DNA of 64,000 bases from a virus (IMGVR_UViG_3300024520_000049:110596-174595); one strand, 5' to 3'. Positions 32,985 to 53,738 are shown, counted from the first letter of the stretch. A program made the numbers and translations. The notes: generated by a model not told the origin, from the sequence alone.

Positions 32985-33941
32985 ATGAGACCTTGCGAAC
33001 ATTGCGGTGAGCCACTGGAGGAGGGGAGTCATACTAGCAAGAAGTGTCATAAAGAGTGCGCGCGGGAGAGGAAGAACGACCTTCGGCGTGCTAGACGTAG
33101 CGACCCAGAGAAGCGGGAGAGGGAGCTCGCCCGACGACGCATCGCCAACCTAACACCCGAGCAGCGGGAGAGGAAGAACGCCAGGCAACGCATCGCCAAC
33201 ATGACCCCCGAGCAGCGGGAGAGGAAGAACGCTCATCATCGCGCCCGGCGCGCCAACCTCACCCCAGAGCAGAGGGAGAGCAAGAATGCCCTCACCCGTG
33301 TCGCCAATATGACACCAGAGCAGCGGGAGAGGACCCGTGTCGCCAACCTCACCCCAGAGCAGCTGGAGAAGAAGAGAGCCCACAACCGCGTCGCCAACAT
33401 GACGCCAGAGCAGGTGGAGAAGAGGAACGCCCGCAAACGCATCGCCAACATGCCGCCAGAGCAGCGAGAGAGGAAGAACGCCCGCAAACGCATCGCCAAC
33501 ATGCCGCCAGAGCAGAGGGAGAGGACGAGGGCACGCGCCCGTGTCGCCAACATGACACCAGAGCAGCTGGAGAAGAAGAGAGCCCGCAACGCCAACCCAA
33601 CCTCAGAGCAGCGGGAGAAGAAGAACGCCCGCGCCCGTGTCGCCAACATGACACCAGAGCAGCAGGAGAAGGAGAGAGCTCGTCGTCGGCAGCGCATCGC
33701 CAACCTCACCCCAGAGCAGCGAGAGAGGAAGAACGCCCTCACCCGCATCGCCAACATGACGCCAGAGCAGGTGGAGAAGAGGAACGCTAGCAAACGCGTC
33801 GCCAACCGAACACCCGAGCAGCGGGAGAAGCAGAGGGCCAGCAACTGCAAATGCCGAGCTAACCGGCAACAAACAAACGAGTACTTTGAGATTCTTGGCC
33901 TCATTGAGGCTCTTCCAGACCTAATCAACGAAACAATATAA
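32985..33941 (+). CDS. Zn-finger + ANxTPEQ tandem-repeat protein, copy 1 (318 aa)
   Basis: MRPCEHCG..HKEC head, ~15 basic repeats, constant tail QQTNEYFEILGLIEALPDLINET; SD AAGGAGG. Confidence 0.85.
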   Translation: MRPCEHCGEPLEEGSHTSKKCHKECARERKNDLRRARRSDPEKRERELARRRIANLTPEQRERKNARQRIANMTPEQRERKNAHHRARRANLTPEQRESKNALTRVANMTPEQRERTRVANLTPEQLEKKRAHNRVANMTPEQVEKRNARKRIANMPPEQRERKNARKRIANMPPEQRERTRARARVANMTPEQLEKKRARNANPTSEQREKKNARARVANMTPEQQEKERARRRQRIANLTPEQRERKNALTRIANMTPEQVEKRNASKRVANRTPEQREKQRASNCKCRANRQQTNEYFEILGLIEALPDLINETI

Positions 33942-33950
33942 GGAGGAATC

Positions 33951-34625
33951 ATGAGACCTTGTAAGCATTGCGGCGAGCCTCTGGAAGAGGGGAGCTGCCA
34001 CCGGACGAAGTATCATAAAGAGTGCGCGCGAGAGAGGAGGAGGGCCCGCTCCCGCATCGCCAACATGACACCAGAGCAGGTGGAGAAGAAGAGGGTCGGG
34101 AACCGCATCGCCAACTTCACCCCTGAGCAGCGGGAGAAGATCAACGCCCGCCGCCGGCGCGCCAATCTCACCCCAGAGCAGTGGGAGGCGGAGAATTCCA
34201 GGCAGGCCCGCAACCGCGCCAACATGACCCCAGAGCAGCGGGCGAAGCGGAACGCCTACCAACGCGGACGGCGAGCCAACCGCACACCAGAGCAGCGAGA
34301 GGAGTGGAACGCCTACAAACGCCAACACACCGCCAACCTCACCCCAGAGCAGCGGGAGAGCAAGAACGCCCGCTCCCGCATCGCCAACATGACACCAGAG
34401 CAGGTGGAGAAGCAGAGGGCCGGGAACCGCCGCGCCAATCTCACCCCAGAGCAGTGGGAGAAGCGGTTGGCCCCCCAACGCGTCGCCAACATGACACCAG
34501 AGCAGGTGGCGGAGAGGAGGGCCTGCCAAAGTGCCCGCCAACGCGAACAACAACAAACAAACGAATACTTCGAGATTCTTGGCCTCATTGAGGCCCTTCC
34601 AGATCTAATCAACGAAACAGTATAA
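33951..34625 (+). CDS. Zn-finger + ANxTPEQ tandem-repeat protein, copy 2 (224 aa)
   Basis: Same head and tail, ~9 repeats. Confidence 0.85.
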   Translation: MRPCKHCGEPLEEGSCHRTKYHKECARERRRARSRIANMTPEQVEKKRVGNRIANFTPEQREKINARRRRANLTPEQWEAENSRQARNRANMTPEQRAKRNAYQRGRRANRTPEQREEWNAYKRQHTANLTPEQRESKNARSRIANMTPEQVEKQRAGNRRANLTPEQWEKRLAPQRVANMTPEQVAERRACQSARQREQQQTNEYFEILGLIEALPDLINETV

Positions 34626-34634
34626 GGAGGAATC

Positions 34635-35294
34635 ATGAGACCCTGTAAGCATTGCGGCGAGCCTTTGGAGGAGGGGCGTGGCTACCGCGCGCAATATCAT
34701 AAGGAGTGTCAGCGCGAGAGGAGGAGCCGCCACCACCGCATCGCCAACCTCACCCCCGAGCAGCGGGAGAAGCGGAACGCTAAACAGCGCATTGCCAACA
34801 TGACCCCAGATCAGGTGGAGAAGCAGAGGGCCTATGATCGCGGACGACGCCAAACCCGCACCCCAGAGCAGGTGGAGAAGGACAGAGACCGCTGCCGCAT
34901 CGCCAACATGACCCCAGAGCAGGTGGATAAGCGGAACACCCGCCACCGCGACAACATGACACCAGAGCAGCGGGAGAGGAAGAACGCCCGCTACCGCGTC
35001 GCCAACCTCACCCCAGAGCAGCGGGAGAAGGAGAGAGCCCGCAAACGCATCGCCAACCTCACCCCAGAGCAGCTAGAGAAGAACAGAGCCCGCGCCCGTC
35101 GCGCCAACATGACCCCAGAGCAGGTGGAGAGGGTAAGGGCCCAGGCCCGTCGCGCCAACATGACCCCAGAGCAGGTGGAGAGGAGGAGAGCCTACGCCCA
35201 GGACCTCCGCCACGAACAGCAACAAACAAACGAGTACTTTGAGATTCTTGGCCTCATTGAGGCCCTTCCAGATCTAATCAACGAAACAGTATAA
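34635..35294 (+). CDS. Zn-finger + ANxTPEQ tandem-repeat protein, copy 3 (219 aa)
   Basis: Same head and tail, ~9 repeats. Confidence 0.85.
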   Translation: MRPCKHCGEPLEEGRGYRAQYHKECQRERRSRHHRIANLTPEQREKRNAKQRIANMTPDQVEKQRAYDRGRRQTRTPEQVEKDRDRCRIANMTPEQVDKRNTRHRDNMTPEQRERKNARYRVANLTPEQREKERARKRIANLTPEQLEKNRARARRANMTPEQVERVRAQARRANMTPEQVERRRAYAQDLRHEQQQTNEYFEILGLIEALPDLINETV

Positions 35295-35303
35295 GGAGGA
35301 ATC

Positions 35304-35498
35304 ATGAACCCAGAACAACGCAGAAAGATCAACATGCGGCAGCGCCGCGCTCATCTCATCAATCGCTGCAGCGATAGCGACCTCACCCCAGAACAACAAA
35401 AGGAGAAGAACGACCGTAAACACGCTCACCGCCTCGCCAACATGACCCCGTCGCACCTGGAGAGGATCAGAGCCTGGGATCGCCGCCACGGCCAATAG
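35304..35498 (+). CDS. degenerate short ANxTPEQ repeat protein, copy 4
   Basis: Same SD context AAGGAGGAATCATG; MNPEQ, LTPEQ, ANMTPS; lacks Zn head and tail. Confidence 0.65.
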   Translation: MNPEQRRKINMRQRRAHLINRCSDSDLTPEQQKEKNDRKHAHRLANMTPSHLERIRAWDRRHGQ

Positions 35499-35566
35499 GC
35501 CCACGAAGAAGACAGTCTTACAACGAAACGATAAAAACGACACGAAACGAACAAGGAATAAGAAAA

Positions 35567-36271
35567 ATGACTATCTCCGCAGAAAACAACGAAGAAAACA
35601 ACGAACCCAAGCAGCAGAAAATCGAGCTGACAGACGAACAGTGCAAGAAGATCCTCGCCAGGGCCATCGCCCGTATGAAGGCAATGTCAGGCGACTGGAA
35701 ATCCATCTCCGAGGACTTTGTTGAGCTCATCGACGGCCGTACTGACGGTAGGGATTACATCCGCAGCCGCCTCCCCGGCCTTTCGCTACATAGCCTAAAC
35801 CTCTTTGAGAAGGTAGGTCGAGGAAGCTTGGACCCCCGCCTCGGCCCCAGCGCGATGATCCACAAGCCCCACATGCTGCGGAACCTCTCAATCGCTGACC
35901 AGCTTAAGACTCTTGACGAGAAGCTGTCTCTTGCGATACTCGGCGTCGATCCCGGCAACTTCCGGCTGGTGCGCTGGTCAGATGAGCTTTCGTTAAGCCA
36001 ACGCAAGCAGCTGGTAAGCCACTCGGCGCTCCGGACGGTAGCAGAGCAGATCCTGTACCTGGAGGCTCTCCGCACCAACCGCCGCTTGAAGAGCGCAGAC
36101 AAAGAGACAGCTGATTATTTCGTGAAGCCTAACGGCGTCGTGGTCTTCACAACGAAGAAAGAGGAGCATGAATGGGAACCAGAGGACCTGCTGCAGCTGG
36201 CGACTAACGCCGTGAAGCGTGCCAGGGAGTGGGACAACAAGAGGAAGGGCAAAGGTACGTCAAAGCCGTGA
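35567..36271 (+). CDS. hypothetical protein
   Basis: 234-aa ORF after an A-rich spacer. Confidence 0.7.
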   Translation: MTISAENNEENNEPKQQKIELTDEQCKKILARAIARMKAMSGDWKSISEDFVELIDGRTDGRDYIRSRLPGLSLHSLNLFEKVGRGSLDPRLGPSAMIHKPHMLRNLSIADQLKTLDEKLSLAILGVDPGNFRLVRWSDELSLSQRKQLVSHSALRTVAEQILYLEALRTNRRLKSADKETADYFVKPNGVVVFTTKKEEHEWEPEDLLQLATNAVKRAREWDNKRKGKGTSKP

Positions 36272-36740
36272 AGCTCGGCTCAGTGAGGGTCATCGTATAC
36301 CTCAACCCGTTCGCTACCGTGAAGAGTCAAGTGTTCAAACAGCCTTGGGAGAAGGCGAACTACACTCTTCGGCAGCTGAACGTGGGTGTGAGGAACGTAC
36401 GGAATCACGTCCACGCCGAAGTGTACAGGGCGCGGGCGGGCATATGAAATCCGTTAAACAAATCATAAAGCACAACAGACTAGGCGTGGCCCATAAGGTA
36501 CTGTACGGCTCAGGCAAGTACACACAGGTCCGTGGGCGCATGCTGCTAGGGCAGCCATTGGGCATGTTTGGCCGCATGCTCATGCTTGTAGACCACCAAA
36601 TAGAAGAAGACCTAGGAGGAAGGAGAAGATGAAGATCAAGAAGGCACAACCCCGCGTCTGGGGTGTGCTTACGGACGCGGGTGGCAGAACGCCTGCGACA
36701 AGCGACAACAAGAACCACACGAGTAAGGAAGAAGACGAAA

Positions 36741-37862
36741 ATGACTGATGCTATAAATGACCAAATGTCCGATGATCTTGGCGGCGCCAAACCATCGACT
36801 ACACCAAACGCGCTGGCTGACGCTGCGGCAAAGCCTACCAAAGCAAAAAATAAGAAGATCGAATCGTTGACGCCTGAGCAGGAGGCGGCGATACCTGAGT
36901 TCCGTGATCGCTGGATTGCGATTGGACTGCAGACTCGCAAGTACGACAAGACCATGGTGCCAGAGCTGATGGCTCGCATCTACAAAGAGGGCGGGCTCGA
37001 GCCGCCCCAGCACATCCTGCATCTGACGTCACCAATGGCGGCCAATGCGCTCATCAACCTGCTGCAGGACAACGAAGACCACCCCATGAAAGAGGCCGAT
37101 GTCTCTTTGACCACGGTTGAAGGCTACGGCGCCGACGGGGCCACCTCGTTCGACATTCGCTCAATGACAGTTGACGATAAGACGCCGGACCTGCGGGCAC
37201 TGTGCAAGGACAAAACCCTGGACACAGTACACAATGGGGCTGCCTGCTACGGTGCTCACGACGCGGCCTGGCTGGGCTTCTACGAGTTCTGGATGGAGGC
37301 CGGCATTGAGGAATGCAAGCAGCTGCTTCCGCTCATGGACGCGGCCAAAGCCGCTGTGGGCTGGTTCTACCCGTTCGAGGAGGCTTGTATCGTCACACCG
37401 CTGCCTACTGAGCTGCACCGTGATGATGAAGGTCGCTTGCACAACACAGAAGGTGCTGCTCTGATCTTTGATGATGGCTGGGGCGTATGGAGCGTCAACG
37501 GCGTGCGTGTGCCGCGCAAGATCATCGAAGAGAAGGACAAGATCACTGCTCAGGACATCCTCGATGAGGAGAATGCAGAGATCCGCCGTGTTATGATGGA
37601 GTTCCTCGGCACAGAGAAGTTCATCCAGGAGTCTGGTGCCCGCTTGGTGCACAAGGACGATTGGGGGGAGCTCTACGAGAAGGAGCTTGAGGACGACGAA
37701 CCTCTCTGTATGGTGAAGGTGGTGAACAGCACACCTGAGCCAGACGGGCATTATAAGGATTACTGGATTCGGGTACGTCCGGGGTGTGAGACGGCACATG
37801 ACGCTGTTGCCTCTACCTTCCACCGGACGGCTGAAACCTACGATCCTTCCGTAGAAACCTGA
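36741..37862 (+). CDS. DUF6745 domain protein
   Basis: YGAHDAAWLGFYEF, GWFYP, GRLHNTEGAAL..DGWGVW.VNGVRVP, ENAEIRRVMME, VNSTPEPDG..Y.IRV..AHDAVASTF..YDPSVET. Confidence 0.85.
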   Translation: MTDAINDQMSDDLGGAKPSTTPNALADAAAKPTKAKNKKIESLTPEQEAAIPEFRDRWIAIGLQTRKYDKTMVPELMARIYKEGGLEPPQHILHLTSPMAANALINLLQDNEDHPMKEADVSLTTVEGYGADGATSFDIRSMTVDDKTPDLRALCKDKTLDTVHNGAACYGAHDAAWLGFYEFWMEAGIEECKQLLPLMDAAKAAVGWFYPFEEACIVTPLPTELHRDDEGRLHNTEGAALIFDDGWGVWSVNGVRVPRKIIEEKDKITAQDILDEENAEIRRVMMEFLGTEKFIQESGARLVHKDDWGELYEKELEDDEPLCMVKVVNSTPEPDGHYKDYWIRVRPGCETAHDAVASTFHRTAETYDPSVET

Positions 37863-37869
37863 TATAACT

Positions 37870-37908
37870 GCTATCCCAGGGCCGCTGCAATGGTGGTCCT
37901 GGGATAGC
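37870..37908 (+). terminator. strong stem-loop after the DUF6745 gene
   Basis: GCTATCCCAGGGCCGC...GTGGTCCTGGGATAGC; no clear U-tract, so it may be a processing or stability element instead. Confidence 0.5.
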
Positions 37909-37922
37909 GATTTGGAGATTAT

Positions 37923-40900
37923 ATGCAGTTAATTCGACGAAGAGTAGAAGTGAAGGAGCGTGCCATCCAGAGATCGTCGGCCAGGATCTCAGAGGAGCAT
38001 GTGTATAAGGATTCGACCTGCGACGTCTTGCGGGCGTACCATATAAAACTTTACGAGGCGCTACACGCGGAAGCTCCAGCGCAGGCAGTTGATCCAAGAT
38101 CTTCTGCGACTGTGCTCCAACTGTCCGACCAATTACAGGACGATGCATGAAGAACGCTGTTATACATGCAGTGGTTATCACCCCAGGCGGGAGATCAGCC
38201 ACGATTATTGTGAGCCACCACGACCAATTCTGGGTGGGGCATGCGCAGAGACGAGAGCAGGAACGACAACTACTGGAGGCGCAATCTTATGAGGTTAAAG
38301 CAGCAAGTCACGCCCAAGGTTAACCAGCGAATGTACGCCAGCGACCTGGCGATCAATGGACTTTTTACACTGGAACTGTGGTCGAATCTCATTCACCCCG
38401 ACCGCCATCGCGAGGCGATACATGAGGAACTATACGATGAAGCTCGGACCGACAATGAAGTATGAGGTGTATCGGCAGGTCCAGGAAGGAGCCGCTGTCT
38501 GCGCACCCCCAGACCTGTTGTCTGGAGGACCGCACCCAGCCACGATGCGCCCCGGCGCTGTCTCAAGATATCTCCACCCGATCGCCAATCATGCCCATGA
38601 AATTGCGCACCAGCTGGGCGCGGAGCTATGGGACGGGGAGGTGCTGTTACGAGGTTGGGGCCGACTCGCCGAGACCACATCAAGGCAACTACCCGCCAGG
38701 GCTACGATTTAATCCCACGCACCAACAACGGTCACATTCACAGCATGCCGATCGGCAGCGTGGAGCTGATGGCGCAGGGACAGATTGACGGGATGATCTA
38801 TGAGATAGAGGACAAACTGCAGGAAGACGTAACAGGGAGGAGGGCAAATCTATGGCGATGAGATTAGGATACACGAGTGAGCGCGGCCGTATACAAGAGG
38901 ATCCCCGCCACCGCGTCTCGATGGCGTGCCACCAGGCGGATAGGCGTCTACTTAATGGTGCCTCTTTGGCGCCCCTCTTCTCCATACTGCTGCAGGATGT
39001 GCGGGATGCTGCTAGAGATCAGCTGCTTATCGATGTCGCGCCAAAGCCCAGGGACTGGAACGGGCAGGTGCTCCTGTGAAGTTGGGAGAGTCCGCAGGGA
39101 AGACAATAACGCAGCTGTGCTTTGACTCGCCCGCCAGCAACGCCGTCATCATGCACGATGCTGCCACGGTGGATAGGTGGAGAAGGTTGGCATTCCCAGC
39201 ACCACTGTTCCACCCAATCACAAATAGCCAAAGCGGCCAACTAGAGGAGGACGCCAAATGAAGATAGAGACAGACAAGTTTATACGTCAGCGCCTCCGCC
39301 TCTATGCGGAGTTGCGCAAGAACGTGATAGCGCCGTATGGCTTTGCGGTGTTCAACGAGGTCGCTACCGAGTTCGGCGCTTTCCGCACCCCAGGTACACA
39401 ACCATTAAGACAATTGCTCCACCAGCTAGTTTGGGAGGGTATGTAATGAGATTAACCTGCCCACAGAAGGGCCTGATCGATCGCAACCTTAAGGACCATA
39501 TTTTCAGCGGGATAATAATAGGGGCGGGGCCGCTGTTCACGAGGAAAACGAACCCGCAGCGATTCTTCGATTCAACGGGCGGCCGTCACGTAGGGGACGT
39601 TATCGCTACCGAGATCCGCCGCCGAAACTAAAGGATTAAAACTAATGCAAATCAAGGCTGTGCCCACCTCGGAGCTCCGCAACCGCTCACTGCGCGCCGA
39701 GGATTATCTACACGCAGCAAAGCGTGCGAAGATGGGGCGGTACATTGCTCGGCTGGAGGCGCAAAGAGATAACATAAACAAGAAGCGGCGATCGATTTTC
39801 GACTGCTGCTGGAGGTGACAGGTGAAGGTTAGCCATATGGATATGTGCCAGCACGAGGTGCGGGACTGTAAGATGATAGCCGCCCACACAGCTATTAGAG
39901 CCGCGCGCCCAAGCCAGTACAGCCGAGAGCTTCTGCTGGTTCGGGATGACCTTCACCCCCAGCTTAATGCGGTAATGGACCAAATCGAGGAGGACGCATG
40001 AAGGTTGAAAGATCAATACGCAAACACCTCGGACACGCGGGGCTAAACGCCCGTGTAGGCGCAATCGCCGTTGACGCTGCCCAGAAGAAGTACTCCCCGC
40101 AACCCCCAGGCCTTCTGATACTGGCGCTAACGATTGAGCAAGAGGTAAGGCGAGGGATTAAAGATGAAGGTTAAACATGTAAACCAGTGTCGCCACAAGG
40201 TTTGGCACCCTGTAGAGGGGTTAGCACGCTTCGCTATCAGAGGTCGCGTCAGCAACCAAAGCTATACCAAGCTGGTGGTGGAGCTCATCCAGGAGGTGTT
40301 ATCTCCTGACCTAATACGAATAGTCGCCGATCAACTCGAGGAGGATGCCCGTGAAGTGTAAGCTAGGCAGCTCAGTACAGCGTGCAGCCAGCCAGGCCTC
40401 GTCGGTCACCCACATTACTTACCCACACTTTGAGGGCCTGGACGAGGAGCTCTGGTGGTTAACCTTGGCAAGACTTGTCAACAACCACAAGGATGGGATG
40501 ATAACCCGAACACCTGAGCAGCTACGCCTACGCGCCCAGCTGACGGATGACTGGAGGCGGTACCCATGCCAGCTATCTCACGCCTATGGGTTTCTTCCAG
40601 ATCACGGGTAAGTCAACAAGGGCATAACGCTGCCCACCGGGCCGTGGACCGCGCCGTCGCCGACGAGGCCTGGGAGAAAGTCTCCAAAGGCATCCCCCAC
40701 GTTACTGCCGACAACCGCGAAGACATTCGCAAAGCGCTGACGGATGACTGGAGGCGGTACCCATGACAACCATTTCACGCCGATGGCTGCCTGTCAAAGT
40801 ATGGGTAGACAGCCATAACCGCAACGGCCTTCAGGAGCGCGTAGCCATCGCTGTAGCCGAAAGCTCCTGGATAGCCGCTGCCGAAGGTATTGCTATGCGC

Positions 40901-43196
40901 GGGATCGGGCACACCATCGCGGCTAATCGCCACGAGGCGCTGGCGCAGATGGGGGCGGATTGGGGTCACGCGGAGGACTGGGAATGAAGCTGGGCGATCA
41001 GGCGACGACGACCTACGGCCCCTCCTCAGAAGTTTATGTTGCGGTACGAGCCAGTTGGGGGCCGACCCTCAAGACGAGCCCTGGCCTGTTACTGAGTCTT
41101 GTCATAGGAACCAACCTCATAAATGAGGTGCAGCACGCCATCCTCGATGACACACACCTGGAGGACACATGAAGTTGAGTGAGACTGTTACAAAAGCTGG
41201 ACGCAAGCTGAACCACTCAGTGCATTACTCGGTACACGTTGAGGTCACCCATAAGCCTAATCGGTGTACACGCCACCACGATCTGCGAGATCACTACGCA
41301 GAGCTCGCGTTGCATAATGTGGTCGTATGGCGCGGTGTGCGTGAGCAATTAAAGGAGGACACATGAAGTTGAACAGCGTGATGCTCGAGCTCGGCCGACC
41401 CGAGGTGAAGCTCAGGCGCAAATTAGTAGGTGGCCAGATCGACCTGCTGGCTGATCACGAACTGTGGAGCCTGGATGAGATAGAGACCATCATATGGGCG
41501 ATAATGGAAGAATCGACCTACTACTACGACAAGCACCCCATCTGGGCGGAGGAGGACCAGCCATGAGAATAGCTAAAGAGAAAAGCGGGCTTCTCCGCAG
41601 TTGTGCCCGATCCCGTGCACGCCAAGGCGTGCACCGGGCGGTAAAACACACGATCGATACACCATCCCTAGTCGTGAGAGTCTGGTCCGGGGATGGCTTG
41701 TCTCGCCAGCCGCTCCTGCGCCAGATACGCGATGACGTTGTTGCTGACTACCCGCGTCTTCGCCGCATCAGCGGCGGGGGGAACTCAGTATGAAGCTGAA
41801 ACCAGTAATACGCGAGGACATCCGCAGAATCCGCCCCGCCAATGACGCGGTACCCCGGGTAAAACGGAGACCACCATGGACGAGGCAGGCAGCGGTGCTG
41901 AAGTATATAGGCAGTACCGAGAGCTCCAGGTACGCAGTGATGGCTGAGGTCTGCATCGATATAAAGAGGGATAGCCTATGAAGTTGAAATCAGCGAAGCT
42001 CGGGGGCGGCTTGCGGCTTCGCTCCTCCAGTCACATCTGGGTACGTACGAAGCCGATCGGCCCGACGCAGTGGTGGCGCGTAAAGGACAGGCTGATGCAT
42101 AGCGAGCCCTGGCCAAGCACCTTCCATGCTGTAGAGCTGGTGCTTGACGCAGCGATCGGCCAGATGTGGGCCGACGCCGAGGAGGACGCATGAAGCTGAA
42201 ATCAGTGAAGCTTGATGCGGGGAAGCAGCTCCGCAGCTTCTACGTGGGCGGCACACCACACAACGTGCCGGAGGAACTTTGGCAGTCCTGGCAGCATACA
42301 CGAACCCATCTCGCTCAGGTTATCATAATGGGGCCGGGAGGGCAGCCATACCATATGATGAACAACCAGATGTGGGTAGACTGGAAGGGGGATGCATGGC
42401 AATGAAGCTGATATCAGTGGTGCAAAGGGTGAACTATGGTGCCATACGCAATGTCCCAGACCTAGAAGAGGACCTTACACTAATTACGCAAACACGCGGA
42501 GAGTTCATGCCCCCAGCGGCTCTGCGTATCGCCCTGCAATCCCGCAATGGGGTGTGGGACCAGATGCGAGCGGATTGCTGGGGGTGGGAGATACGATCAT
42601 GAAGCCGATACCTGTAAAAACAAGAGTTAGCGGAGGCCAGATGAAAGCGAAACTCAGATACCCCTTGCGCAGAGATGTACCCAGGTCAGCAATACGCGAA
42701 GCATTTGTCCGCCACCCAAGCGCCTGCTTAGTTGTGCACGTGTCCAATGCGGTGGCTACTCAGGTGTTCGTCGACACCTGGACGTGGCTATGACGTCTGC
42801 ACGATGTAAAGTCGGGCTGCACTGGCTCGGCACCAAAGCTGAGAAGGCCATGCCTCGTAACGCCGTTGAACTGTGGATCCTGGCCCGCAGAAAGACAGGA
42901 GTCGATCAGCAACGAGCACTGGTGCTGCCTGATCCGGTGCTCGGCCAACTACACGACGACTGGAAGAAGGACACACCCCCATGAAGGTAACAAGGAGCAC
43001 ATCCAGGCGCAGAGCGGTCAACTGCCCGTTCCAGGCTCTGGGCATCAGCTCTCAGGCCAAGGACCTGGTGGATGAGGATTTATGGTGGCTCGTCAAGTAC
43101 AAGCTACAGCCAGGCCCGTGGGTTGGCGTAAGCCGAGAAGGAGACAGTATCAAGACGGAAATCGAGCTTGATAGTCATAAAAATTCACCTATATAG
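37923..43196 (+). repeat. main tandem micro-gene array (~27 coupled ORFs of ~58-90 aa)
   Basis: Starts at 37923, 38147, 38289, 38437, 38628, 38858, 39076, 39258, 39446, 39645, 39822, 39998, 40164, 40351, 40566, 40763, 40984, 41169, 41363, 41563, 41790, 41978, 42190, 42402, 42599, 42790, 42981; recurring junction GAGGAC-N2-3-ATGAAG. Confidence 0.8.
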
Positions 43197-43314
43197 GTGC
43201 AAGAAATGCAGGTGGGGAGAAATAGGAGGACCCCCCTCAGGTAGTGGTAATAGTTAAAAAGTGGGTCTAGATTAGAGGCCTCAACAACACAAACAAACGG
43301 ACAAGGAGAAGAGA

Positions 43315-43656
43315 ATGGCGAAACAGAAGATCTACCGTCAAGGCGACGTGCTCGTCGTTGCACTGGACGAATTCCCTAAGGGAGTTGACAGCAGCAAGAT
43401 GAAGAAGTACAACCACGCCGATCAGCTGGTGCTTGCCTATGGCGAGACCACTGGCCACCACCACACCGTGGTAGGTAACAGCAAGGTGGCCGAAGCGCTC
43501 AAGGAAGAGTACGGAGAAGACATCTTCTTCGAGCTGGATAAGCCCAGCGCACTCACCCATGATGAGCATGACACCGTGGAACTTCCAGCAGGGAAGTACC
43601 AGAAGGTGCAACAGCAGGAGTACTCTCCTGACGCATACCGGGACGTGCGCGACTAA
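43315..43656 (+). CDS. conserved His-rich 'RQGD' protein (usual DUF6745 neighbour)
   Basis: YRQGDVL..VLAYGETTGHHH..LTHDEH..LPAGKY..QQEYSP..RDVRD; SD AAGGAG. Confidence 0.85.
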   Translation: MAKQKIYRQGDVLVVALDEFPKGVDSSKMKKYNHADQLVLAYGETTGHHHTVVGNSKVAEALKEEYGEDIFFELDKPSALTHDEHDTVELPAGKYQKVQQQEYSPDAYRDVRD

Positions 43657-43674
43657 GTTTCTCGCCAGACCCGT

Positions 43675-43716
43675 GGGCCAGCAACCATTCTTCAGGTTGC
43701 TGGCCCTTTTTATTTT
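43675..43716 (+). terminator. intrinsic terminator
   Basis: GGGCCAGCAACC-ATTCTTCA-GGTTGCTGGCCC-TTTTTATTTT. Confidence 0.85.
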
Positions 43717-43793
43717 CAGCAGGGTATATGTGAGCATTTAGCCTGTGAAACCTACTTAAACGATAACATGTAAACACTTAGCGAGGAGGGCAT

Positions 43794-43997
43794 ATGAAGC
43801 CACGAGGATACAAAGAACAGACGGGTATCCCCTGCTGCGCCAACTGCGTGTTCGGAGGATACCTGGGCGCCCAGGAGCAGCCAGAGCGCATGGCCATCTG
43901 TGAGGTCATGGGCGAGTGTGAGTCCGGAGCCTACTCGGATATCGCCGTCGAGCCGCTGGGCATTTGCGACGCCTGGAACAGCAGAGCTGGCACATGA
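43794..43997 (+). CDS. small Cys-rich protein
   Basis: CCANCVF..C..GICDAW; SD GAGGAGG. Confidence 0.6.
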   Translation: MKPRGYKEQTGIPCCANCVFGGYLGAQEQPERMAICEVMGECESGAYSDIAVEPLGICDAWNSRAGT

Positions 43998-45707
43998 AGC
44001 TGGGTGAGCGTATGCCCGGCGCCCTCTTCGAGGTAGACCAGAAACTCCAGGAGCTATCTGCCACCCGCAGCATCAAGCGCTATGTGGCTGAGGCTATAGA
44101 CGGTACAGGCGACGAGGCTCTTGAGGACGAGTACTGGAGCATCTCATTAGCGATCGATTTCATTGAGGATCAGATAGAGGAGGACATATGCAACTAAAGA
44201 GTGTTGTCGAGCAGGTGAGCAGCACCAAGAGCTTCCCAGCGCTGTCTGATCACGTAGACACAGGCCCACGGGTAGTGGTGATCGCGAGTATGGGTAACGG
44301 TGGTTGGGATGTAGCGAGGGAGACACGCGCAGAGATCTCCCGCCAGGTGCGGAAGGAGGACATATGAAGCTGGGCTACGCAGTCTTCGCACAGGTTCGCC
44401 ATAAGCTCAGCAACGCCGCTTGCGATTGCCTACTGCAGGAAGGCATGGCGATCGATATGGCTAATGAGTGGAGAGCGCCACGGGCAGGGACGACCATCAC
44501 AGAGAATCACATCGAGGACCAACTAGCGGAGGATGCATGAATAGCGTTATTAAACAGGTAACGGGGCAAGTCATCCCTGCGGGCATCCCGGAGATGATCT
44601 CTATGTATGTGGAGACGCAGCTCGTCGAGGAGCTTGCTGAGCCGGTTCAAGCCGCCACCCTCTTCACTGCGGAGATCGCTACTGAGGTAATTCTTAAGCA
44701 ACGCGGCACGTGGGGCTGGCACGCATGAAGCTGGGAGACATGCAGCTTTTCGGCGGGGTGTGCAAGCTCCGCCCTGCGCCTAGCGACTTCCTAGATAGCC
44801 AGGTGTGCCCTGTCCCATGGGCAACCACGATCAGGGCTATGCGCATCAAAGTATGGCGCGCCCACACACCGTTCCGCGAGGCAGAAGCTGATCAACTGCG
44901 GGAGGACGTATGAAGCTTAGCAATCATGTCTCGGTGCAGGTCCGCCAAGAGCGTAGCACGGGTGCTTGCGAGACCCTCCTTCAACGCAGTAGCGCGGTAA
45001 CTATGACGAGTAAGTGGGCCGCCCGGCGGACGTTCACCGCTACCATAGAGAGACACATCAATGACCAACTGAAGGAGGACACATGAAGCTGATTAGCACA
45101 CGGCGCCGCAGTGATAAGAAGTTAGAGCTCTATATGAAGCCACGCATCTATACGCAGCTAGGGCATCGGGCATGGTCGAAGGTTCTCGCTACCATACCCG
45201 ATGGCTGCCCCTCTCATCGAATAAGGAGAGATGCTCAAGTACACCACGGGACCCGTGATAGGCCGAACAACACACTCAAACGACAGCTGGAGGCGGACAT
45301 GCTATGAAGATAGGAGCACCAGCACGGAAGGCTATCAAGTCAACCATCTGTCGCGGGCTGTGGACGACCGCCAAACTGAGCGTTTACCATAAAGGGAAGA
45401 CGGGCACGCTGGCACTGGGCCCGATGAGCGATGATCCCGCGACCGCCTTGTTGCAGGCAGTCTTGAGCGCCCCAATCCTGCAGCTAGAGGAGGATGTATG
45501 AAGATGATGTCCGTTAACCAGCCAGTCAGGTACAATCTGGCCCACAGGGTGTACGAAGACACCTCACAGCATATACCCTGGGGAGGGTCAACACCCGCAT
45601 TCTCCCCAGTACCAGCACTCAGCCAAGCACTTGGCTGGATATCTGAGGGGATTAGACATGAGTTCAAATATAAAGGAAAGGATAATGAGAGCAGAAAGCA
45701 CAAGTAA
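43994..45707 (+). repeat. micro-gene array, second block (9 ORFs)
   Basis: Starts 43994, 44188, 44364, 44537, 44725, 44910, 45083, 45304, 45498; ends DQIEED, DQLAED, DQLRED, DQLKED, LQLEED. Confidence 0.8.
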
Positions 45708-46125
45708 ATGGACTTACCTCGGTGAGCCCGGTGGCCGTGGAGGCCATCATGACGACCAGCTGCGGTTCGCCCGCAACAATGAGAGCGGAGAGCTGTATCT
45801 CTTCGACCGCAGCGGGGAGAACCCCGACCTTACAGACGACGCGCCCTGCCGGGTGCTGATACACAAGCCCATCACAATCGCATCTGGCGCCGGCAAAGGT
45901 AGCAAAGAGATCCACTGCCGCGTGTCGGTTATGGTAGAGGATCCAGAGCCCGGGATCTATGCAATGCCCATTCACTACGAAGCTGCCATGTGGCTGCACG
46001 AGACCCACGAGACACGGATCCTGCCAGCGGAAGGCGACAAGCGCATCCTGCGTATGCTTCGCCTCTTCCAGCTGGTATCGGTGCCGCTCACGCCTGAGGA
46101 GGAGGGTATCTTTGATGAAGACTAA
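45685..46125 (+). CDS. hypothetical protein
   Basis: ORF interrupting the array. Confidence 0.6.
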   Translation: MRAESTSKWTYLGEPGGRGGHHDDQLRFARNNESGELYLFDRSGENPDLTDDAPCRVLIHKPITIASGAGKGSKEIHCRVSVMVEDPEPGIYAMPIHYEAAMWLHETHETRILPAEGDKRILRMLRLFQLVSVPLTPEEEGIFDED

Positions 46126-46338
46126 CCCGATAGATAAACAAAAGGCAGCCAATCGCCGGCATAAGCGCCGGCTAAGAGAGTCTGCAGAAGTCACCGCCCG
46201 CGCGACTGCATCTGCTGAAGTCACTGCCCGCCTGATGCAGCTGCTGGCCAACAAAGGCCTGGTAACGGCTGAGGAGATCGTGCAGGTAGCGAATGGCCAG
46301 TCTCCTAAGGAGCTGGGCTACTCCGACTGCGGGCTAGT

Positions 46339-47402
46339 ATGACCAGCGTGAAATATGAAGTGCTCCGCCAGGTGATGGACTCAGTGTGGGCCCAGGTGAT
46401 AGCCCCGGCAGACTGCCTTGTGGTAGCCCGGCTACGCCAGCAAGCGCAGCCGAAGGTGCAGCTGCGAGTTCGAGCTCAGGTGAGCGGCGCAGTGTGGGAG
46501 CAACTAGAGGAGGACGCCCATGAAGCTGGCTAGCGCGCGAGAACGGGTAGATGACCTGGTGTTGGACCGAGTGCACTTGACCATGTGTGCACAGGTAGTC
46601 TGCCTTATCGGACACCCGGCGTGGCCGCAGGCGGACGCTCTGGTGAGCCATGCTCTGCTGCGCCGGCTGGAGGATCAATTAAAGGAGGATCACGATGACT
46701 AACGTATCAGTTAGAGTTGACGAGCGAGTGAGCACACAGCTTTACGCCCGCTCACGGAGACACGTGAATTCCTACGTTCGCCTGCAGCCCCGGGATGCTG
46801 TGCACTGGCAGACCTTCGTCGAAGTACACCCCCGCTTGCGGGTCAGCGTGTGGGGCCAGGTGTGGGACCAACTGGATGAGGACATCGATGATTAACGTAT
46901 CAGCTGAAGTACAGCTTCGAGTTCGTGAGCAGCACTGGAGCTCAGTACACCTCCAGGCGTGGCGCGGCACGTGGGATCGTGTGCACCGCCAAGTGGAAGA
47001 TCAGGTGTATACCTCACTTCATACCCAGGTGGCATTCCACGTTGAGCGCCAACTCGGGAATCAACTAACGGAGGACATCGATGATTAACGTATCAGCTGA
47101 AGTGTACGATCGAGTACGACGACAGCGGTGGGCCTCCACGCATCGTCAAGCGTGGTGTCACACGTGGGGGCGTGTGCATCACCGCGTGGAGGATAAGGTG
47201 TACCGCGCTATTGCTGCGGATGTGCATCTTCAGGTGCAGGATCGAATGTGGGACCAACTAGAGGAGGACGCTGATGATTAGCAAAGATACTTACGTCCGC
47301 GGCCAGGTGCATAATCTAGTGTGGGCTATAGCAGCCCACCACGTAGCTAAGGCTACACATACTTCGGTGGAGGACCAAGTGATTGACCAGATGCAAGGGT
47401 AG
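46339..47402 (+). repeat. micro-gene array, third block (6 ORFs, Trp/Gln/Val-rich)
   Basis: Starts 46339, 46520, 46695, 46888, 47081, 47274; ends WEQLEED, WDQLDED, WDQLEED. Confidence 0.8.
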
Positions 47403-47457
47403 AGTAGGTAAGAGTACCAAGGATTAGTGAGACCAGACCAACACACGAAGGACGAAA

Positions 47458-47661
47458 ATGATTGAGAAGTTCGGACACGCGATCACGAACTCAGCAGACA
47501 CCCGTGTCGCAGTCAAGATGATTGCGGAGCAGCACGTGATGGAGGATTGCGGCTTCATCCCCACCATTCAGGACTGGACTACCCCGATGGGCAAGACCCC
47601 TGAGAGCTGGATGCTGCGCGTGCACACAACCACAGTACTAGCGTTGGAGGTAGAAGAATGA
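47458..47661 (+). pseudogene. DUF6915-like protein, C-terminal half only
   Basis: FGHAITNS..VAVKMIAEQHVMEDCGFIPTIQDW matches the second half of DUF6915 as I recall it; the His-rich N-half is absent. Confidence 0.5.
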
Positions 47662-48083
47662 CTATACAGCCATTAAGTAAAGAGATACACCAGATGGCGC
47701 TGGACATGGGCGTCCTACAGCTGCGGCTGCAATTCTCTGGGGGTAGTGACGAGGGTTTTCTGAACGTAGAGTCCGCACCGTGGCTGTATCACTCGGTGTG
47801 CCGCACCTGCCGGAGGGCGGGCCAAAAGTCTGATCGTGGCTATGTTTGCATACATTGTGATGAGGTTATTAGCTACCCGCACAAACCACGAGACTTCTAC
47901 GAAGCTGTGGAGGAGTGGGCCTGGAAGGTATACTCCTATGGCGGCGCTGGCGCCGGTGAGGACTATGGTGATGACATCACCTATAACCTGGAGAATAAGA
48001 CAATGGAGCATCAGCGCTGGACGGAGGGGCGCGTCTACCACGACGAGACAGAGGAGAAGCTGGAGGTAGCGGATGCTGATTAG
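47658..48083 (+). CDS. DUF6878-like hypothetical protein with inserted Zn ribbon
   Basis: LQFSGGSDEG, CRTC..CIHC, YSYGGAGAGEDYGDDITYNL. Confidence 0.55.
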   Translation: MTIQPLSKEIHQMALDMGVLQLRLQFSGGSDEGFLNVESAPWLYHSVCRTCRRAGQKSDRGYVCIHCDEVISYPHKPRDFYEAVEEWAWKVYSYGGAGAGEDYGDDITYNLENKTMEHQRWTEGRVYHDETEEKLEVADAD

Positions 48084-48300
48084 CGAAGACACCTACGTAC
48101 GAGCCCAGGTGAACAACACACCCTGGGCTCGGGCGAGCTGGCACGCTCGCACTGGCACCGCTAGCACTGTTTGCCATCATGTGGAGCTCCAGCTGCAGGA
48201 CCAGGCTGCGCAGATATATGCGCTACGTGATACAATCCGTGAACGCGTGCAGGACCAAATAGAAGAGGATCAACTAAAGGAGAACGAAGATGGCGATTGA
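48073..48300 (+). CDS. micro-gene array member
   Basis: MLISEDTYVRAQV...QDQIEED; paralog of the 47274 ORF. Confidence 0.65.
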   Translation: MLISEDTYVRAQVNNTPWARASWHARTGTASTVCHHVELQLQDQAAQIYALRDTIRERVQDQIEEDQLKENEDGD

Positions 48301-48557
48301 ACCAGTAGACGTTGACCGATGCCAGGGGGAGAGCAGGCCCGGGGCGTTCGCCCTCGGCCCGAACACCTTCCGCCGTTGCGGCCGCCTCCCCACAGCCATT
48401 GTGCTTGAGCGCGAGGATGGCGAGGACGGCCACAAGGGCAGCATGTCCCTCTGCGAGCACTGCCTGCCTATTATGCAGGACATGACGAATGTGCCGGTGG
48501 ACGTGATCCACATCAAGGAGCGGGGGGTTAGTGAAGTGTTAAAGAAGGAGAAGAACA

Positions 48558-48971
48558 GTGGATGAGAAATTAGAAGAAGCGAAGAAGACTGAGCTCCACT
48601 CGTGGGCGCAGACGCTGGTCATGGACTTCCAGCGCCTCGCTGAGATGGGGATGAATTACCTGGCTCTGGGCTTCGGTGATCCGAAGACGGGCGAGGAGTA
48701 CGAGGTGATCGTACAGCGCAAGAGCGGGCGCACCCCTGCGGACAAGGTCACAGCGCTACAGGCTGAGGTTGACCGGCTACAGCAGGGATTGGAAGGCGCG
48801 ATCAACAGGCTTGAGACGATACGCGAGACAGAGTCGAGATTCATGCTGGACCGGGACATTGAGAGCTACAAGGCAGCTTTGTGCCCCACGCATCTCTCCG
48901 CTGCAGGCGAGTGCGCCTACATGCACGTACCCGACAAGCACTGCGTGAAGTGCGGCAAGGTCGGTCTCTGA
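48558..48971 (+). CDS. hypothetical protein (coiled coil + Cys tail)
   Basis: SD AAGGAG. Confidence 0.55.
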   Translation: MDEKLEEAKKTELHSWAQTLVMDFQRLAEMGMNYLALGFGDPKTGEEYEVIVQRKSGRTPADKVTALQAEVDRLQQGLEGAINRLETIRETESRFMLDRDIESYKAALCPTHLSAAGECAYMHVPDKHCVKCGKVGL

Positions 48972-49651
48972 TGAGCAAAGCTAAGGACTACCGCAGTGCG
49001 AATCTGGCCAAGCACTGCGGCAATTGTGTCTTCCACCTATGGGAGGAGGACAAGGCTGTGTGCCAGAACCCGGCGTTCCTGGCGGTTGAAGACGCAGCAC
49101 GGACAGCTGTGGGCATGGGCTGGCATGAGGAGGACATGCGCGCTAAGGCTGCTGACTATGTGCTGGAGGACTTCTTCACAGACTCAGACTGGCAGGAGTA
49201 TCACGCTATCTGCGATGATTGGGCTGGTAAGAGTGAGCACCTCGTGATGAGCCACAGCTTGGAGCTCTGGGAGGAGAGCTTCTACGAAGCGCTCGACGTT
49301 GAGGCCGCCAGGCCTGACCCAACAGAGGTCATCAGAGAGCCATGCGACGATCCGGACTGCCAAGCCTGCAAAGTAGCTACCGTGCTGCATACACCACAAA
49401 CGGCTGAGGCTGAGCAGTGCTGTGACCCGGGCTGCCACGCCTGCAAGGCGGAGCATGAGGCGCGACTGCTTAAGCAGCAGCTGTCTGACGTCAACAAGAA
49501 GGGCTATGAAGAAGGGCGTGCGGCAGTGATAGCGGAGCTCCGAGAGCTGTACCACCACTGGGCTCTTGTTGCGGAAGGTGCTCCCCACAAGGAGTACATT
49601 GCGGCGCACCAGTATATCAAAGACGTGAAGCAGATAACAGGAGACAGCTGA
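48971..49651 (+). CDS. Cys-rich hypothetical protein
   Basis: HCGNCVF..ICDDW, like the 43794 ORF; duplicated C.DP.C.ACK motif. Confidence 0.6.
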   Translation: MSKAKDYRSANLAKHCGNCVFHLWEEDKAVCQNPAFLAVEDAARTAVGMGWHEEDMRAKAADYVLEDFFTDSDWQEYHAICDDWAGKSEHLVMSHSLELWEESFYEALDVEAARPDPTEVIREPCDDPDCQACKVATVLHTPQTAEAEQCCDPGCHACKAEHEARLLKQQLSDVNKKGYEEGRAAVIAELRELYHHWALVAEGAPHKEYIAAHQYIKDVKQITGDS

Positions 49652-50903
49652 TGGTTGGTATGTTCGGCATAGTGGCAGTAATCCTGATGTTCCCACGCGC
49701 CCTCTCAGAAAATCGCTGGACCTGGCGTGTGGCTGGTGAGTTCCTGGTCCTTCTTGTGCTGACCGTGCTCTCTATCCTGTGCCTTGTCACCTCGGCGAGC
49801 AAGGGCGGCACATCATGAGCCGGCCGCTGGAGTGGGATGTAATCGACTGGGAGAGAAGCGGGCCTGCCCATACCGCCAACTCCACGGTCCACGATGACGG
49901 CCGGCCGTTCCGGTACCGCGTAACAAAGCAGGGTAAGGAGTTCTCCGTAGGGCATTCAGACCACGAGCTGCTCTCTGACCCGGTGGATCCGTTCCCGGAT
50001 CTTGCTCAGGCTTACTGCCAGAATAACGAGTACATGCTGGTGAGATCCTTGGAGGATGACTACAAACGCAAAGAAGGAGGTGGATGATATGCCCGATTTA
50101 GGGCCACTTATCAAGGGCTTAGAAACGGTAATAAAAGCCAAGTACGACCTGATGTGCGAGACCTGCGGTAGAATGACAAAGGCTCGCGAGATGATCGGCA
50201 AGCACGAGCAGGCCACCTGTCTGGTGTGTCAAGGAATATGTCCTGACTGCGAGCAGTACGGAGAGGATAGCGAACGCGGGCTAGTTTGCCTGGAGTGTGA
50301 TAAAGTGTGGGAGGCAGAACCATGAGCACGACAACCAACAGCGTGCGCCTAAGAGACAACACCAGCGCGGCTATCAATGACTACGAGATCTGGCTGCTCC
50401 AGTGGAGCGACTACTGTGCAATGCTACAAAGGAGGGCAAGATGATAATACAACGAACCATATCTGTAATGCTGCTATTGCTGATGTTGCACTACCTCGCC
50501 ACCGATAAGGAGTTGATCGCGGCCGTGCTATTGCTGTGTTCGCTCATGTCCGAGGCGCTTGCTGAGCTGAAAGGCGCACGTGACGACGCGCGGGACCCGT
50601 GAAGTGCCCAATCTGTAAGGAGCCCATAGTCAAGAAGAGTATGCTGCCAGCAGAGGCGTACAGCTTCATGCGGGACCTGGGCCTGAACGCCTTCCCTGGC
50701 GCCTTCCTCAGCCGTAAGTGCTGCAACTACTGTGTCGGGGCGATGCGTGCCGGCATGACATTGGAGTGTTTGCGCAGAGAGAGTATACGTAGCAGGCAAT
50801 CAGACGCTGCTGCAGTGGACAATCAGACGGATGCTGAAAAAGCACCGCCACACCTAAAAAAGTGCGTACAACCAGACTGACGGTCGAATAAAGGAGGATA
50901 GAC

Positions 50904-51578
50904 GTGACAAAAAAAGAAGCGCAAGAAGGTGTCGACGCGCGTCTGCGACTGTCTGCAATGAAGACCCGGCACCGATTGAAATTGTCGTGGAACTTTGACA
51001 GCGAACTCGTCCTAGCCTCCCGCTGGCCCCGACGACTGCCGAGAGATCCCTGGGGGGCTGGCTACATGCGCCGAGTACCGGGCCCACGGTGGATGCACAC
51101 GGGGCCAGTGAGGTTCCATCTCTACGATTCGGCGACAGCGGGTAACCGACTGTATGACGCTCAAGCGTTTTACTACGCGTGGAGGATCACGGAAGAGGAG
51201 CGCGCCAGGGTTCTGCAGCGCTACAAATCGGCTGGCGACAGCCTGCCCTGGGGGACGGCCCCAACCTGGGGCTCGATGGACCTGTGCGCACGTTGCGGGG
51301 AGGACTACCATAACTCGACCCGGGGTCATGTGTGCCTCAACCCGCTCCCGGCTTGGGAGCATCTAGTTGAAGATCTGAGGGAAGCCAGCCCCGGCAGGCA
51401 CTACACGACTTTGGTCTGCCGCTGCCCCTTCCACACCGAGAAGCGCCGTTCCTTCCGCATCGACCCTCACATGTACCGGTTCGGCTGCACTAAATGCTAT
51501 CACCCTGGCGGGAAGCTAAGCGATCTGGCGTCCCGCATAGAGGAGGTACGAAATGGCGTCAATAGCGCCGATGATTAA
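50904..51578 (+). CDS. protein with C-terminal CHC2 (primase-type) zinc finger
   Basis: CRCPFHTEKRRSFRI...FGCTKC..PGG. Confidence 0.7.
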   Translation: MTKKEAQEGVDARLRLSAMKTRHRLKLSWNFDSELVLASRWPRRLPRDPWGAGYMRRVPGPRWMHTGPVRFHLYDSATAGNRLYDAQAFYYAWRITEEERARVLQRYKSAGDSLPWGTAPTWGSMDLCARCGEDYHNSTRGHVCLNPLPAWEHLVEDLREASPGRHYTTLVCRCPFHTEKRRSFRIDPHMYRFGCTKCYHPGGKLSDLASRIEEVRNGVNSADD

Positions 51579-53459: not shown

Positions 53460-53738
53460 ATGGCTGACCGAGCAGAGTACCCGCAGCACGATAAGCTGCA
53501 TGAAGTGAAGGAACGCTCTCAGACCATCGGGGAGTTCATGGAGTGGCTTGGTGCAGAGAAGAAGCTCTGCCTGGCCACCTGGGCGAACGATAACTGGATG
53601 TTGCCAGCGCCCTACGATATCCAGGATCTCTTGGCGGAGTTCTTTGAGATCGACCGTAATGCGCTTGAGGCCGAGAAGCTGCACATGCTGGAGGCGCAGC
53701 GTGCGTTAAATGCGCGAGCGGCAGAGCAAACAGCATGA
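53460..53738 (+). CDS. hypothetical phage protein
   Basis: YPQHDKL..SQTIGEFMEWL..LLAEFFEID..LEAEK. Confidence 0.7.
   Translation: MADRAEYPQHDKLHEVKERSQTIGEFMEWLGAEKKLCLATWANDNWMLPAPYDIQDLLAEFFEIDRNALEAEKLHMLEAQRALNARAAEQTA

Follow-up and report, generated by a model that had tools for sequence, protein, structure and literature searches.

A tract-less DUF6745 gene, its RQGD partner and arrays of free-standing tetrad-repeat micro-genes in a large phage genome

The DUF6745-RQGD locus

The stretch of DNA analysed here, IMGVR_UViG_3300024520_000049:110596-174595 (64,000 nucleotides (nt), hereafter the window), comprises bases 110,596-174,595 of a 190,498-bp IMG/VR virus record that CheckV rates as complete. 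It holds a gene of the DUF6745 family and a gene of the RQGD family, set among about 55 translationally chained micro-genes, with 3 lying ahead of DUF6745, 27 between the pair and ~25 after RQGD (Table 1). We propose that the micro-genes are free-standing copies of a tetrapeptide-repeat (tetrad) tract that other DUF6745 proteins carry internally, and that the encoded mini-proteins likely replace this tract, in trans, in a DUF6745 core that lacks it, a reading to which we give a probability of roughly 0.55.

Table 1. Features of the DUF6745-RQGD locus and the micro-gene arrays, in window positions (aa, amino acids; ORF, open reading frame)
Feature	Position	Strand	Description
Three chained micro-ORFs upstream of DUF6745	36268-36447, 36444-36632, 36629-36748	+	59, 62 and 39 aa; ATGA and ATGACTGA overlaps
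DUF6745 gene	36741-37862	+	373 aa, without central tetrad tract; PF20530 E = 3.1e-60; phrog_31813 E = 6.7e-13
Hairpin	37869-37909	+	Perfect 18-bp stem directly 3' of the DUF6745 stop, no T-run
27 type-A micro-genes	37923-43196	+	30-91 aa; mostly start MK[LV] and end ..QLEEDx; starts, first half: 37923, 38147, 38289, 38437, 38769, 38858, 39076, 39258, 39446, 39645, 39822, 39998, 40164; second half: 40351, 40566, 40763, 40984, 41169, 41363, 41563, 41790, 41978, 42190, 42402, 42599, 42790, 42981
RQGD-family gene	43315-43656	+	113 aa; RQGD at residues 8-11, GETTGHHH at 43-50; phrog_27831
Intrinsic-terminator-like hairpin	43675-43706	+	12-bp stem, 9 G-C pairs, 8-nt loop, then TTTTTATTTT T-run
Nine chained type-A micro-genes after the terminator	43994-45707	+	Starts 43994, 44188, 44364, 44537, 44725, 44910, 45083, 45304, 45498
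Six chained micro-genes, type B or transitional	46339-47402	+	M[IT][SN]V..(xxQV)n..EDxDD; 8-nt ATGATTAG-type overlaps; starts 46339, 46520, 46695, 46888, 47081, 47274
Single type-B-like micro-gene	48073-48300	+	75 aa; 46% identity to m47274; type-B profile 16.6 bits
Eight type-B micro-genes, with one frame-break copy at 54833-55074	53735-55253	+	Starts 53735, 53907, 54103, 54284, 54465, 54664, 55071
Isolated type-B micro-gene	63395-63562	+	MISVKRQVWDQIWDQIWEQV...; 12-nt repeat 63412-63538; profile E = 2.7e-20

An earlier note, made from the sequence of this region, had described a DUF6745 gene and an RQGD/GETTGHHH gene separated by ~27 micro-genes, with a hairpin after the former and a strong terminator only after the latter. 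All of these features were recovered. The hairpin is predicted to fold at -34.4 kcal/mol (z = -6.4, with equally good folds in 0 of 200 shuffles) and was not called by the terminator scan. The terminator downstream of RQGD is the sole strong + strand site in 35000-49000; terminator-like sites in total numbered 13 against 11.1 in shuffles, and so were not above shuffles. The picture of a pair that brackets the array did not hold, since three micro-ORFs precede DUF6745 and the chain resumes past the terminator; the pair sits inside the arrays rather than bounding them.

The DUF6745 protein matches Pfam PF20530 with 203.4 bits (cut-off 27), its residues 168-373 falling on profile positions 8-206 of 206, and is encoded once in the whole record. 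It keeps all 22 invariant columns of the family alignment A1, including Q47, W58, P89, P98, G171, W177, H234, N278, E280 and R283, and the N-terminal module LT.EQ...W..GL....SP is present. The RQGD protein matches phrog_27831 (E = 4e-13) over residues 5-113 and retains every one of the 11 columns that are invariant in alignment A2, built from 47 sequences (Q9, G10, D11, G43, G47, H48, H50, H82, H85, G93 and D113). It had no match in the Pfam copy searched, which lacks PF31129, the family name given by ESM Atlas. From the alignment, RQGD is predicted to bind metal through its four invariant histidines (H48, H50, H82 and H85). Its structure model is all-beta, with a predicted local distance difference test (pLDDT) score of 85, and had no match in the PDB (Foldseek best E = 0.39; VIA wide best Z = 3.3); the matches to cupin entries were weak, at Foldseek E = 0.7-1.2 only.

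Pairing of DUF6745 and RQGD

Relatives of DUF6745 are encoded on 363 IMG/VR viral contigs and, by a genome scan, in an estimated ~1,300 bacterial stretches, 599 of them confirmed. We judged pairing in 80 of the viral contigs and in 80 bacterial loci, the latter including Streptomyces, Actinoplanes, Actinomadura, Nocardia and Obscuribacterales. RQGD adjoins DUF6745 on the same strand in 59/80 viral loci (51 upstream and 8 downstream, with gaps of -10 to 566 nt). In the other 21, the contig breaks off at DUF6745 or within it, and the N-domain is missing from 20, hence all 59 judgeable viral loci are paired. RQGD lies directly upstream of DUF6745, on the same strand, in 78/80 bacterial loci. The statement in the earlier note that the two genes are usually adjacent is thus borne out, and DUF6745 and RQGD make up a very widespread, obligate gene pair. 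The 5,452-nt gap in the window is the only large one seen, and even here the two genes share a strand with no strong terminator between them. In phages, the neighbours of the pair include DnaB, Erf, exonucleases, replication initiators, methylases, HNH and rIIA/B.

Two further observations concern the pair. ESM Atlas holds a cluster of 366-aa "DUF6745" proteins (50 members, mostly viral) whose N-terminal part aligns structurally with RQGD (PF31129), and which may be a fusion of the partners; no RQGD-DUF6745 fusion frame was found in 270 proteins or 160 loci, and 0 of 138 longer RQGD homologue candidates scored. In actinomycetes, the pair is found within 4 kb of a gene for an STM4013/SEN3800-family hydrolase (37/80 loci, by tblastn) and of an STM4011-family radical S-adenosylmethionine (SAM) gene (23/80), with an STM4012-family radical SAM gene near the pair in L167 only (a conserved cellular context, with L103, L155 and L167 as examples, among L098-L177). 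Radical SAM neighbours were seen in the actinomycete loci only.

The tetrad tract and its detached counterparts

DUF6745 homologues numbered 394 at E up to 1e-3, and the best 120 were examined for a central tract. One is present in 46/120 by motif count and in 53/120 by a profile of the type-B micro-genes, and 107 of the 118 profile domain hits on these homologues end ahead of the YG.HD motif. The earlier note had described such a repeat between the SP motif and YG.HD in many family members, and had suggested testing whether a micro-gene profile hits the central region; both points were upheld. Homologues with an internal tract (P0007, P0053, P0011-P0019) have N- and C-terminal domains like those of the window (39-53% identity), and their tract shares the tetrad [W/R/G/E][D/A/S/N]Q[V/L/I] with the type-B micro-genes. 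The flanks of P0011-P0019 are identical, and only the number of tetrads differs, which gives lengths of 426-494 aa. The DUF6745 of the window, as the earlier note had claimed, is different: its tetrad score is 4, against 7-148 (mostly >10) in repeat-bearing relatives, and the alignment places a non-repeat insert of ~65 aa where the tract would be, while tract-like sequence occurs as the ~55 separate genes. On a database level, 20/80 viral loci (within L018-L078) have a contig that ends inside the DUF6745 repeat tract, because assemblies break there, and DUF6745 is therefore often truncated in databases.

The repeat is close to specific for this family. The type-B alignment, scanned by full HMMER against 1.84 billion representative proteins, gave 1013 hits at E up to 1e-3. 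In 141 of the best 150, local profiles built from A1 recognized a DUF6745 N- or C-domain. The others are 4 proteins of the window itself, 2 free-standing mini-proteins from other sources (P0256 and P0265, each beginning MI[S/N]V) and 3 proteins of other kinds. A homologue search with the micro-protein of 54664-54837 gave a single candidate, which did not score, probably because word-based indexing copes badly with low-complexity sequence.

A structure model of the repeat-bearing homologue P0007 (mean pLDDT 87.7) shows two confident domains, with the tract drawn at low confidence (pLDDT 46-81) as a helical hairpin of H66-101 and H111-164. Foldseek against the PDB gave a best E of 1.5, and against BFVD returned other DUF6745 proteins only. 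In VIA wide, the matches were coiled coils aligned to the helical tract (Z 5.1 or less), and because these filled the list the C-domain was barely tested. Profile A4 had 0 matches among PDB sequences at E up to 1.

The presence of arrays follows the absence of the tract. In the 80 viral loci, taken with 20-kb flanks and with L051, which is cut in its tract, set aside, DUF6745 lacks a tract in eight (L003, L004, L016, L029, L032, L043, L053 and L064). Free-standing tetrad-repeat arrays lie beside four of these eight (L004, L043, L053 and L064) and beside none of the 71 tract-bearing genes (Fisher p = 4.7e-5); with the window added, arrays lie beside 5/9 tract-less DUF6745 genes. The co-occurrence of DUF6745, RQGD and repeat micro-genes in other genomes, which the earlier note had proposed to survey, exists, and the arrays directly abut the pair in the window, L043, L053 and L064. 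The order in L043 is that of the window, with DUF6745, RQGD and a chain of "MESVK..(xSVx)n..DSILEEEWNQ" genes in which the tail holds the next Shine-Dalgarno (SD) site and overlaps the next start; a second L043 array, at 1314-2929, is far from DUF6745. The tetrads are of the SV kind in L043 and L064 and of the QV kind in L053. In a quick tree with long branches, the array-bearing DUF6745 genes fall in at least 3 places among tract-bearing ones, a scatter that hints at repeated detachment. The anatomy of the locus and the co-occurrence of its three parts are genuine and clearly exceed chance expectation.

Several candidate arrays were rejected in this survey. Repeat ORFs in L015, L017, L019, L030, L037, L072 and L079 are period-2 or simple repeats and were left out of the counts, and other apparent hits proved to be alternative frames over the tract itself. 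L019, a tract-bearing phage, has at 3954-6165 a different kind of repeat mini-gene, in which small genes starting MNICVLKSNEW continue into period-2 (xS)n-type repeats.

Anatomy of the micro-gene arrays

The clean type-B genes consist of tetrads only, in register from the start codon (e.g., MISV KQQV RDQA WDQA GGQL ESQL ... WEDF ND), on a DNA unit of [NGG][GNT]CAG GTA. Genes with an unbroken QVWDQVWDQ or SQLESQLESQ repeat are found at 53907-54110, 54664-54840 and 63395-63562, with 12-nt tandem repeats at 53936-54094 and 54682-54823 in addition to that of the isolated gene. Free-standing genes of this kind, as proposed in the earlier note, thus exist, but they lie outside 36741-43656, and the 27 genes in between are not visibly repetitive. 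All 14 type-B profile matches in the genome are inside the window. Members of the 46339-47402 block match the profile at E = 2e-23 to 4e-20 and one another by BLASTP at E down to 5e-24. In the copy at 54833-55074, the ATG at 54833 reads MISAKQQ.., but the repeat body (..RVWAKVWEQVRDQTWDQLWD..QLEEDVNE) follows the frame of 54856, and the copy is probably a decaying member.

Type-A proteins mostly start with MK[L/V] and end with ..[D/E]Q[L/I][E/K]ED[A/T]. Their junctions are mostly ATGA stop/start overlaps with GGAGGA 3-11 nt ahead of the start, and the tail codons ..GAG GAG GAC.. double as the GGAGGA ribosome-binding site (SD) of the next micro-gene. Some junctions have a weak SD or none, or GTG starts. 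Upstream of DUF6745, the first micro-ORF has a GTG start that overlaps the stop of 35567-36271, the second reads MKSVKQ..QIEED..., and a weak type-B profile match covers 36313-36426 (E = 0.005). After the terminator, m44364 and m44910 share 47% identity. A sub-family at 40351-40987 and 42790-43196 has another junction, in which ..TDDWRRYP is followed by M..IS.. A search of IMG/VR with the junction motif CTNRAGGAGGAYRYATGAAG gave 16 single matches and no arrays, which we take as chance.

Coding character and origin of the in-between genes

Coding potential was scored by codon usage trained on 76 long ORFs of the genome, with 38769 left out of the type-A test. The annotated frame scores best in 35/35 type-A and 15/15 type-B ORFs, compared with 17/71 antisense ORFs of similar length. 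On average the micro-ORFs score 0.25 and 0.23 (type A and type B), as against 0.49 for 13 ordinary nearby genes and -0.07 for antisense ORFs. The micro-ORFs are therefore coding-like but weakly adapted.

With moderate confidence, the 27 in-between genes can be regarded as worn-down, heavily degenerate copies of the repeat. Type-A composition moves with that of type B, towards more R, W, H and Q and less F, G and Y. Taken collectively, type-A genes have a hydrophobic autocorrelation at lag 4 (z = 5.6), lag 8 (2.9) and lag 12 (2.8), with lag 3 depleted (z = -3.5), and on average their best-phase fraction is higher than in control segments (Mann-Whitney p = 5.7e-5). Transitional members also exist, m46339 combining a type-B body with a type-A tail, and m42402 matching m46339 at E = 5e-5. 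The type-A genes are much diverged from one another, with BLASTP E <0.01 in few pairs.

Genomic setting

The + strand holds nearly all long ORFs of the window, which include a DNA polymerase, a UvsX-like recombinase, a helicase and a thymidylate synthase. A transfer RNA search of the window found none, and the phage collection searched with the window DNA held no near-identical phage DNA. The region recurs almost unchanged in seawater metagenome runs of several other samples; contigs from four seawater runs are near-identical over it, with no gain or loss of cassettes, and the public-run contigs break at the duplicated units 40539-40765 and 46881-47100. No reverse transcriptase was found in the 190-kb record by PF00078, which does match control genomes (no template-repeat search was made), nor did PF04055 reveal a radical SAM gene there; together these argue against a retroelement or a RiPP-maturase reading here (RiPP, ribosomally synthesized and post-translationally modified peptide).

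Two other groups of genes border or interrupt the arrays. Just upstream of the micro-genes, 32985-35294 encodes three tandem paralogues (318, 224 and 219 aa) built of 17-aa (51-nt) repeats, "AN[ML]TPEQxEK..R", each of which is Cys-rich at its N-terminus (MRPCKHCGEPLEEGSCH); their ribosome-site leaders are identical. Small Cys-rich (CxxC-type) ORFs with no family match lie among the arrays at 43794-43997, 47658-48083 and 48290-52216.

A model for the detached repeats

We propose that the micro-genes are copies, some clean and most worn, of the x-x-Q/S-V tract found between the two domains of most DUF6745 proteins. The tract would form a helical hairpin, or "finger", as drawn at low confidence in the P0007 model, and slippage on its 12-nt unit may alter both its length and its surface, tuning the DUF6745/RQGD core to a fast-changing target. 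This target would most plausibly be a host defence protein, by analogy with the non-homologous gp54 of phage Tweety and from the place of the pair among early and replication genes. In the phage described here, the finger would have been split off and multiplied, which would provide a single core with many fingers to choose from. We infer that the mini-proteins dock onto DUF6745 in trans, and by analogy that the role may be one of counter-defence. A more far-reaching form of this proposal, in which one DUF6745 and RQGD core is armed by any of ~55 interchangeable helical-hairpin mini-proteins, forming a standing repertoire against many fast-evolving host defence proteins and amounting to a detachable, multiplied gp54-like tract, is speculative, and we think it improbable as a whole.

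A number of results weigh against replacement of the tract in trans. No arrays were detectable beside the tract-less DUF6745 genes of L003, L016, L029 and L032, nor in the Microcystis phage Ma-LMM01, which indicates that a tract-less core can do without arrays. Similarly, a tract is present in only 2/80 bacterial DUF6745 genes, which implies a function of the core for which the tract is dispensable. Taken individually, type-A genes mostly cannot be linked to the repeat: the tetrad phase exceeds the control 95th percentile in just 4/36 type-A proteins, and against the type-B profile the best type-A score is 15.3 bits (m40164) compared with 11.1 for the best of 1040 shuffles, a maximum otherwise passed only by m46520 of the 46339-47402 block (12.6 bits) and m45083 (11.7). 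The codon scores of the micro-ORFs are about half those of ordinary genes, and the sequencing runs listed as carrying the region include no RNA runs. As for counter-defence, neither the DUF6745 nor the RQGD model resembles a known fold in structure searches, and the proposed role draws on analogy. PADLOC and NCBIfam have no family for DUF6745 or RQGD, although the PADLOC null says nothing about counter-defence.

It is also conceivable that the mini-proteins act alone, for instance as decoys or by binding a host target, with no contact with DUF6745 at any point. Redundancy would in that case account for the either/or pattern, since the internal tract could be lost once free repeat proteins were made. 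Arrays that lie at a distance from DUF6745 (53735-55253 and 63395-63562 in the window, and the second array of L043) fit this explanation, as do the tract-less DUF6745 genes without arrays noted above and the composition of the micro-genes, which run as tetrads over their full coding length and have no distinct domain for docking. Against it stand the near confinement of the repeat to DUF6745 proteins among the best 150 hits, the finding of arrays only beside tract-less DUF6745, and the way in which they abut the pair in the window and three viral loci. We consider stand-alone action doubtful.

The arrays could be mostly neutral debris instead, the product of a 12-nt satellite that is prone to slippage, brings its own start and stop signals, and duplicates and decays, leaving micro-ORFs with little or no function. 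The high divergence of the type-A genes, their low codon scores, the frame break at 54833-55074, and the junctions with GTG starts or with a weak or missing SD are all to be expected of such decay. Debris does not readily account for the 50 of 50 tested ORFs that are open and score best in frame, for stop/start coupling maintained over ~55 units, or for a build shared by unrelated lineages of phage whose tetrads differ (SV in L043 and L064, QV in L053). The near-identity of the region across seawater samples, with no cassette lost, also speaks against it, and ~10 kb of a 190-kb genome would be a large cost. On this evidence, we judge debris to be quite unlikely.

Least probable of all, and to our minds very unlikely, is that the micro-genes form a library of precursor or substrate peptides on which DUF6745 and the His-rich RQGD protein act by modification or processing, in the manner of multi-precursor RiPP systems: conserved N- and C-termini around a hypervariable middle could be read as recognition ends and product, the four invariant histidines of RQGD together with conserved Glu and Asp resemble a metal enzyme, and the actinomycete pair has the STM4011-, STM4012- and STM4013-family neighbours described above, but the phage genome has no radical SAM gene, the tract is internal to DUF6745 in most relatives, unlike the build of a RiPP precursor, the conserved tail is explained at the DNA level as the ribosome-binding site of the next gene, and neither DUF6745 nor RQGD matched a known enzyme fold.

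Replacement of the tract in trans thus remains our preferred explanation, and the three-part system of scaffold, metal-binding partner and interchangeable repeat modules put forward in the earlier note is partly supported. The either/or pattern turns the tract and the arrays alike into the subject of a concrete, testable hypothesis. Should the mini-proteins indeed arm this core in trans, the virus would be maintaining its repertoire of recognition surfaces in a novel manner, by gene multiplication of a detachable module and with neither DNA rearrangement nor a retroelement involved. It would also explain stretches of large phage genomes that are filled with unannotatable ORFs of 60 residues.

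Comparison with known systems

A literature search found no paper on DUF6745, its pairing with RQGD or detached repeat arrays, and for tetrapeptide-repeat phage proteins it returned work on Tweety only. Tweety gp54, together with Che8 gp57 and PMC gp51, is described as having two unique end domains around 40-48 AA[G/W/Q][S/Y] tetrads, with W/G alternation arising from changes in the first codon base and a repeat number that varies between close relatives (PMC2884959, PMC9262239). As described there, gp54 is a non-essential gene of the early region, and escape mutants with a changed repeat number overcome the Phrann gp29/gp30 defence (PMC2884959, PMC9262239). The DUF6745 family resembles gp54, as portrayed there, in having end domains that flank tetrads and a varying repeat number (P0011-P0019). 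As a candidate homologue of DUF6745, gp54 was rejected: it matches no Pfam family at E up to 1, and hhalign against A4 gave a probability of 0.1% (E = 0.5). It is an architectural analogue only.

The arrangement in the window is set apart from the gp54 type on three counts. Homology was tested and not found; no counterpart of the obligate RQGD partner has been reported in Tweety; and no published account of arrays in detached form came to light, such micro-genes going unmentioned in the Tweety annotation and in the consulted parts of the gp54 literature. The Tweety genes near gp54 that were scanned in Pfam (50, 53, 55 and 56) gave no family resembling RQGD, in a scan that did not include comparison with the RQGD profile. 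Variable region VR2 of bbp36 in Bordetella phage BMP-1 is likewise a tandem repeat, with a 24-bp unit whose copy number differs between isolates, and is non-essential (PMC2884959). The likeness is by description only; the protein is unrelated and no detached arrays accompany it (PMC2884959).

The closest setting in a cultured phage is that of Ma-LMM01 (NC_008562.1; L179, 5980-7511). Here gp175, an RQGD homologue (35% identity), is directly upstream of gp174, a tract-less DUF6745, with a 23-nt gap, and both are annotated as hypothetical. The 162-kb Ma-LMM01 record differs from the window in having no type-B-like micro-genes. The two genes lie among replication genes, between those for DNA polymerase and uracil-DNA glycosylase. 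The pair is also carried by the MaMV phages, which are cultured Microcystis phages, and Ma-LMM01 thus offers a usable experimental system for the DUF6745-RQGD pair.

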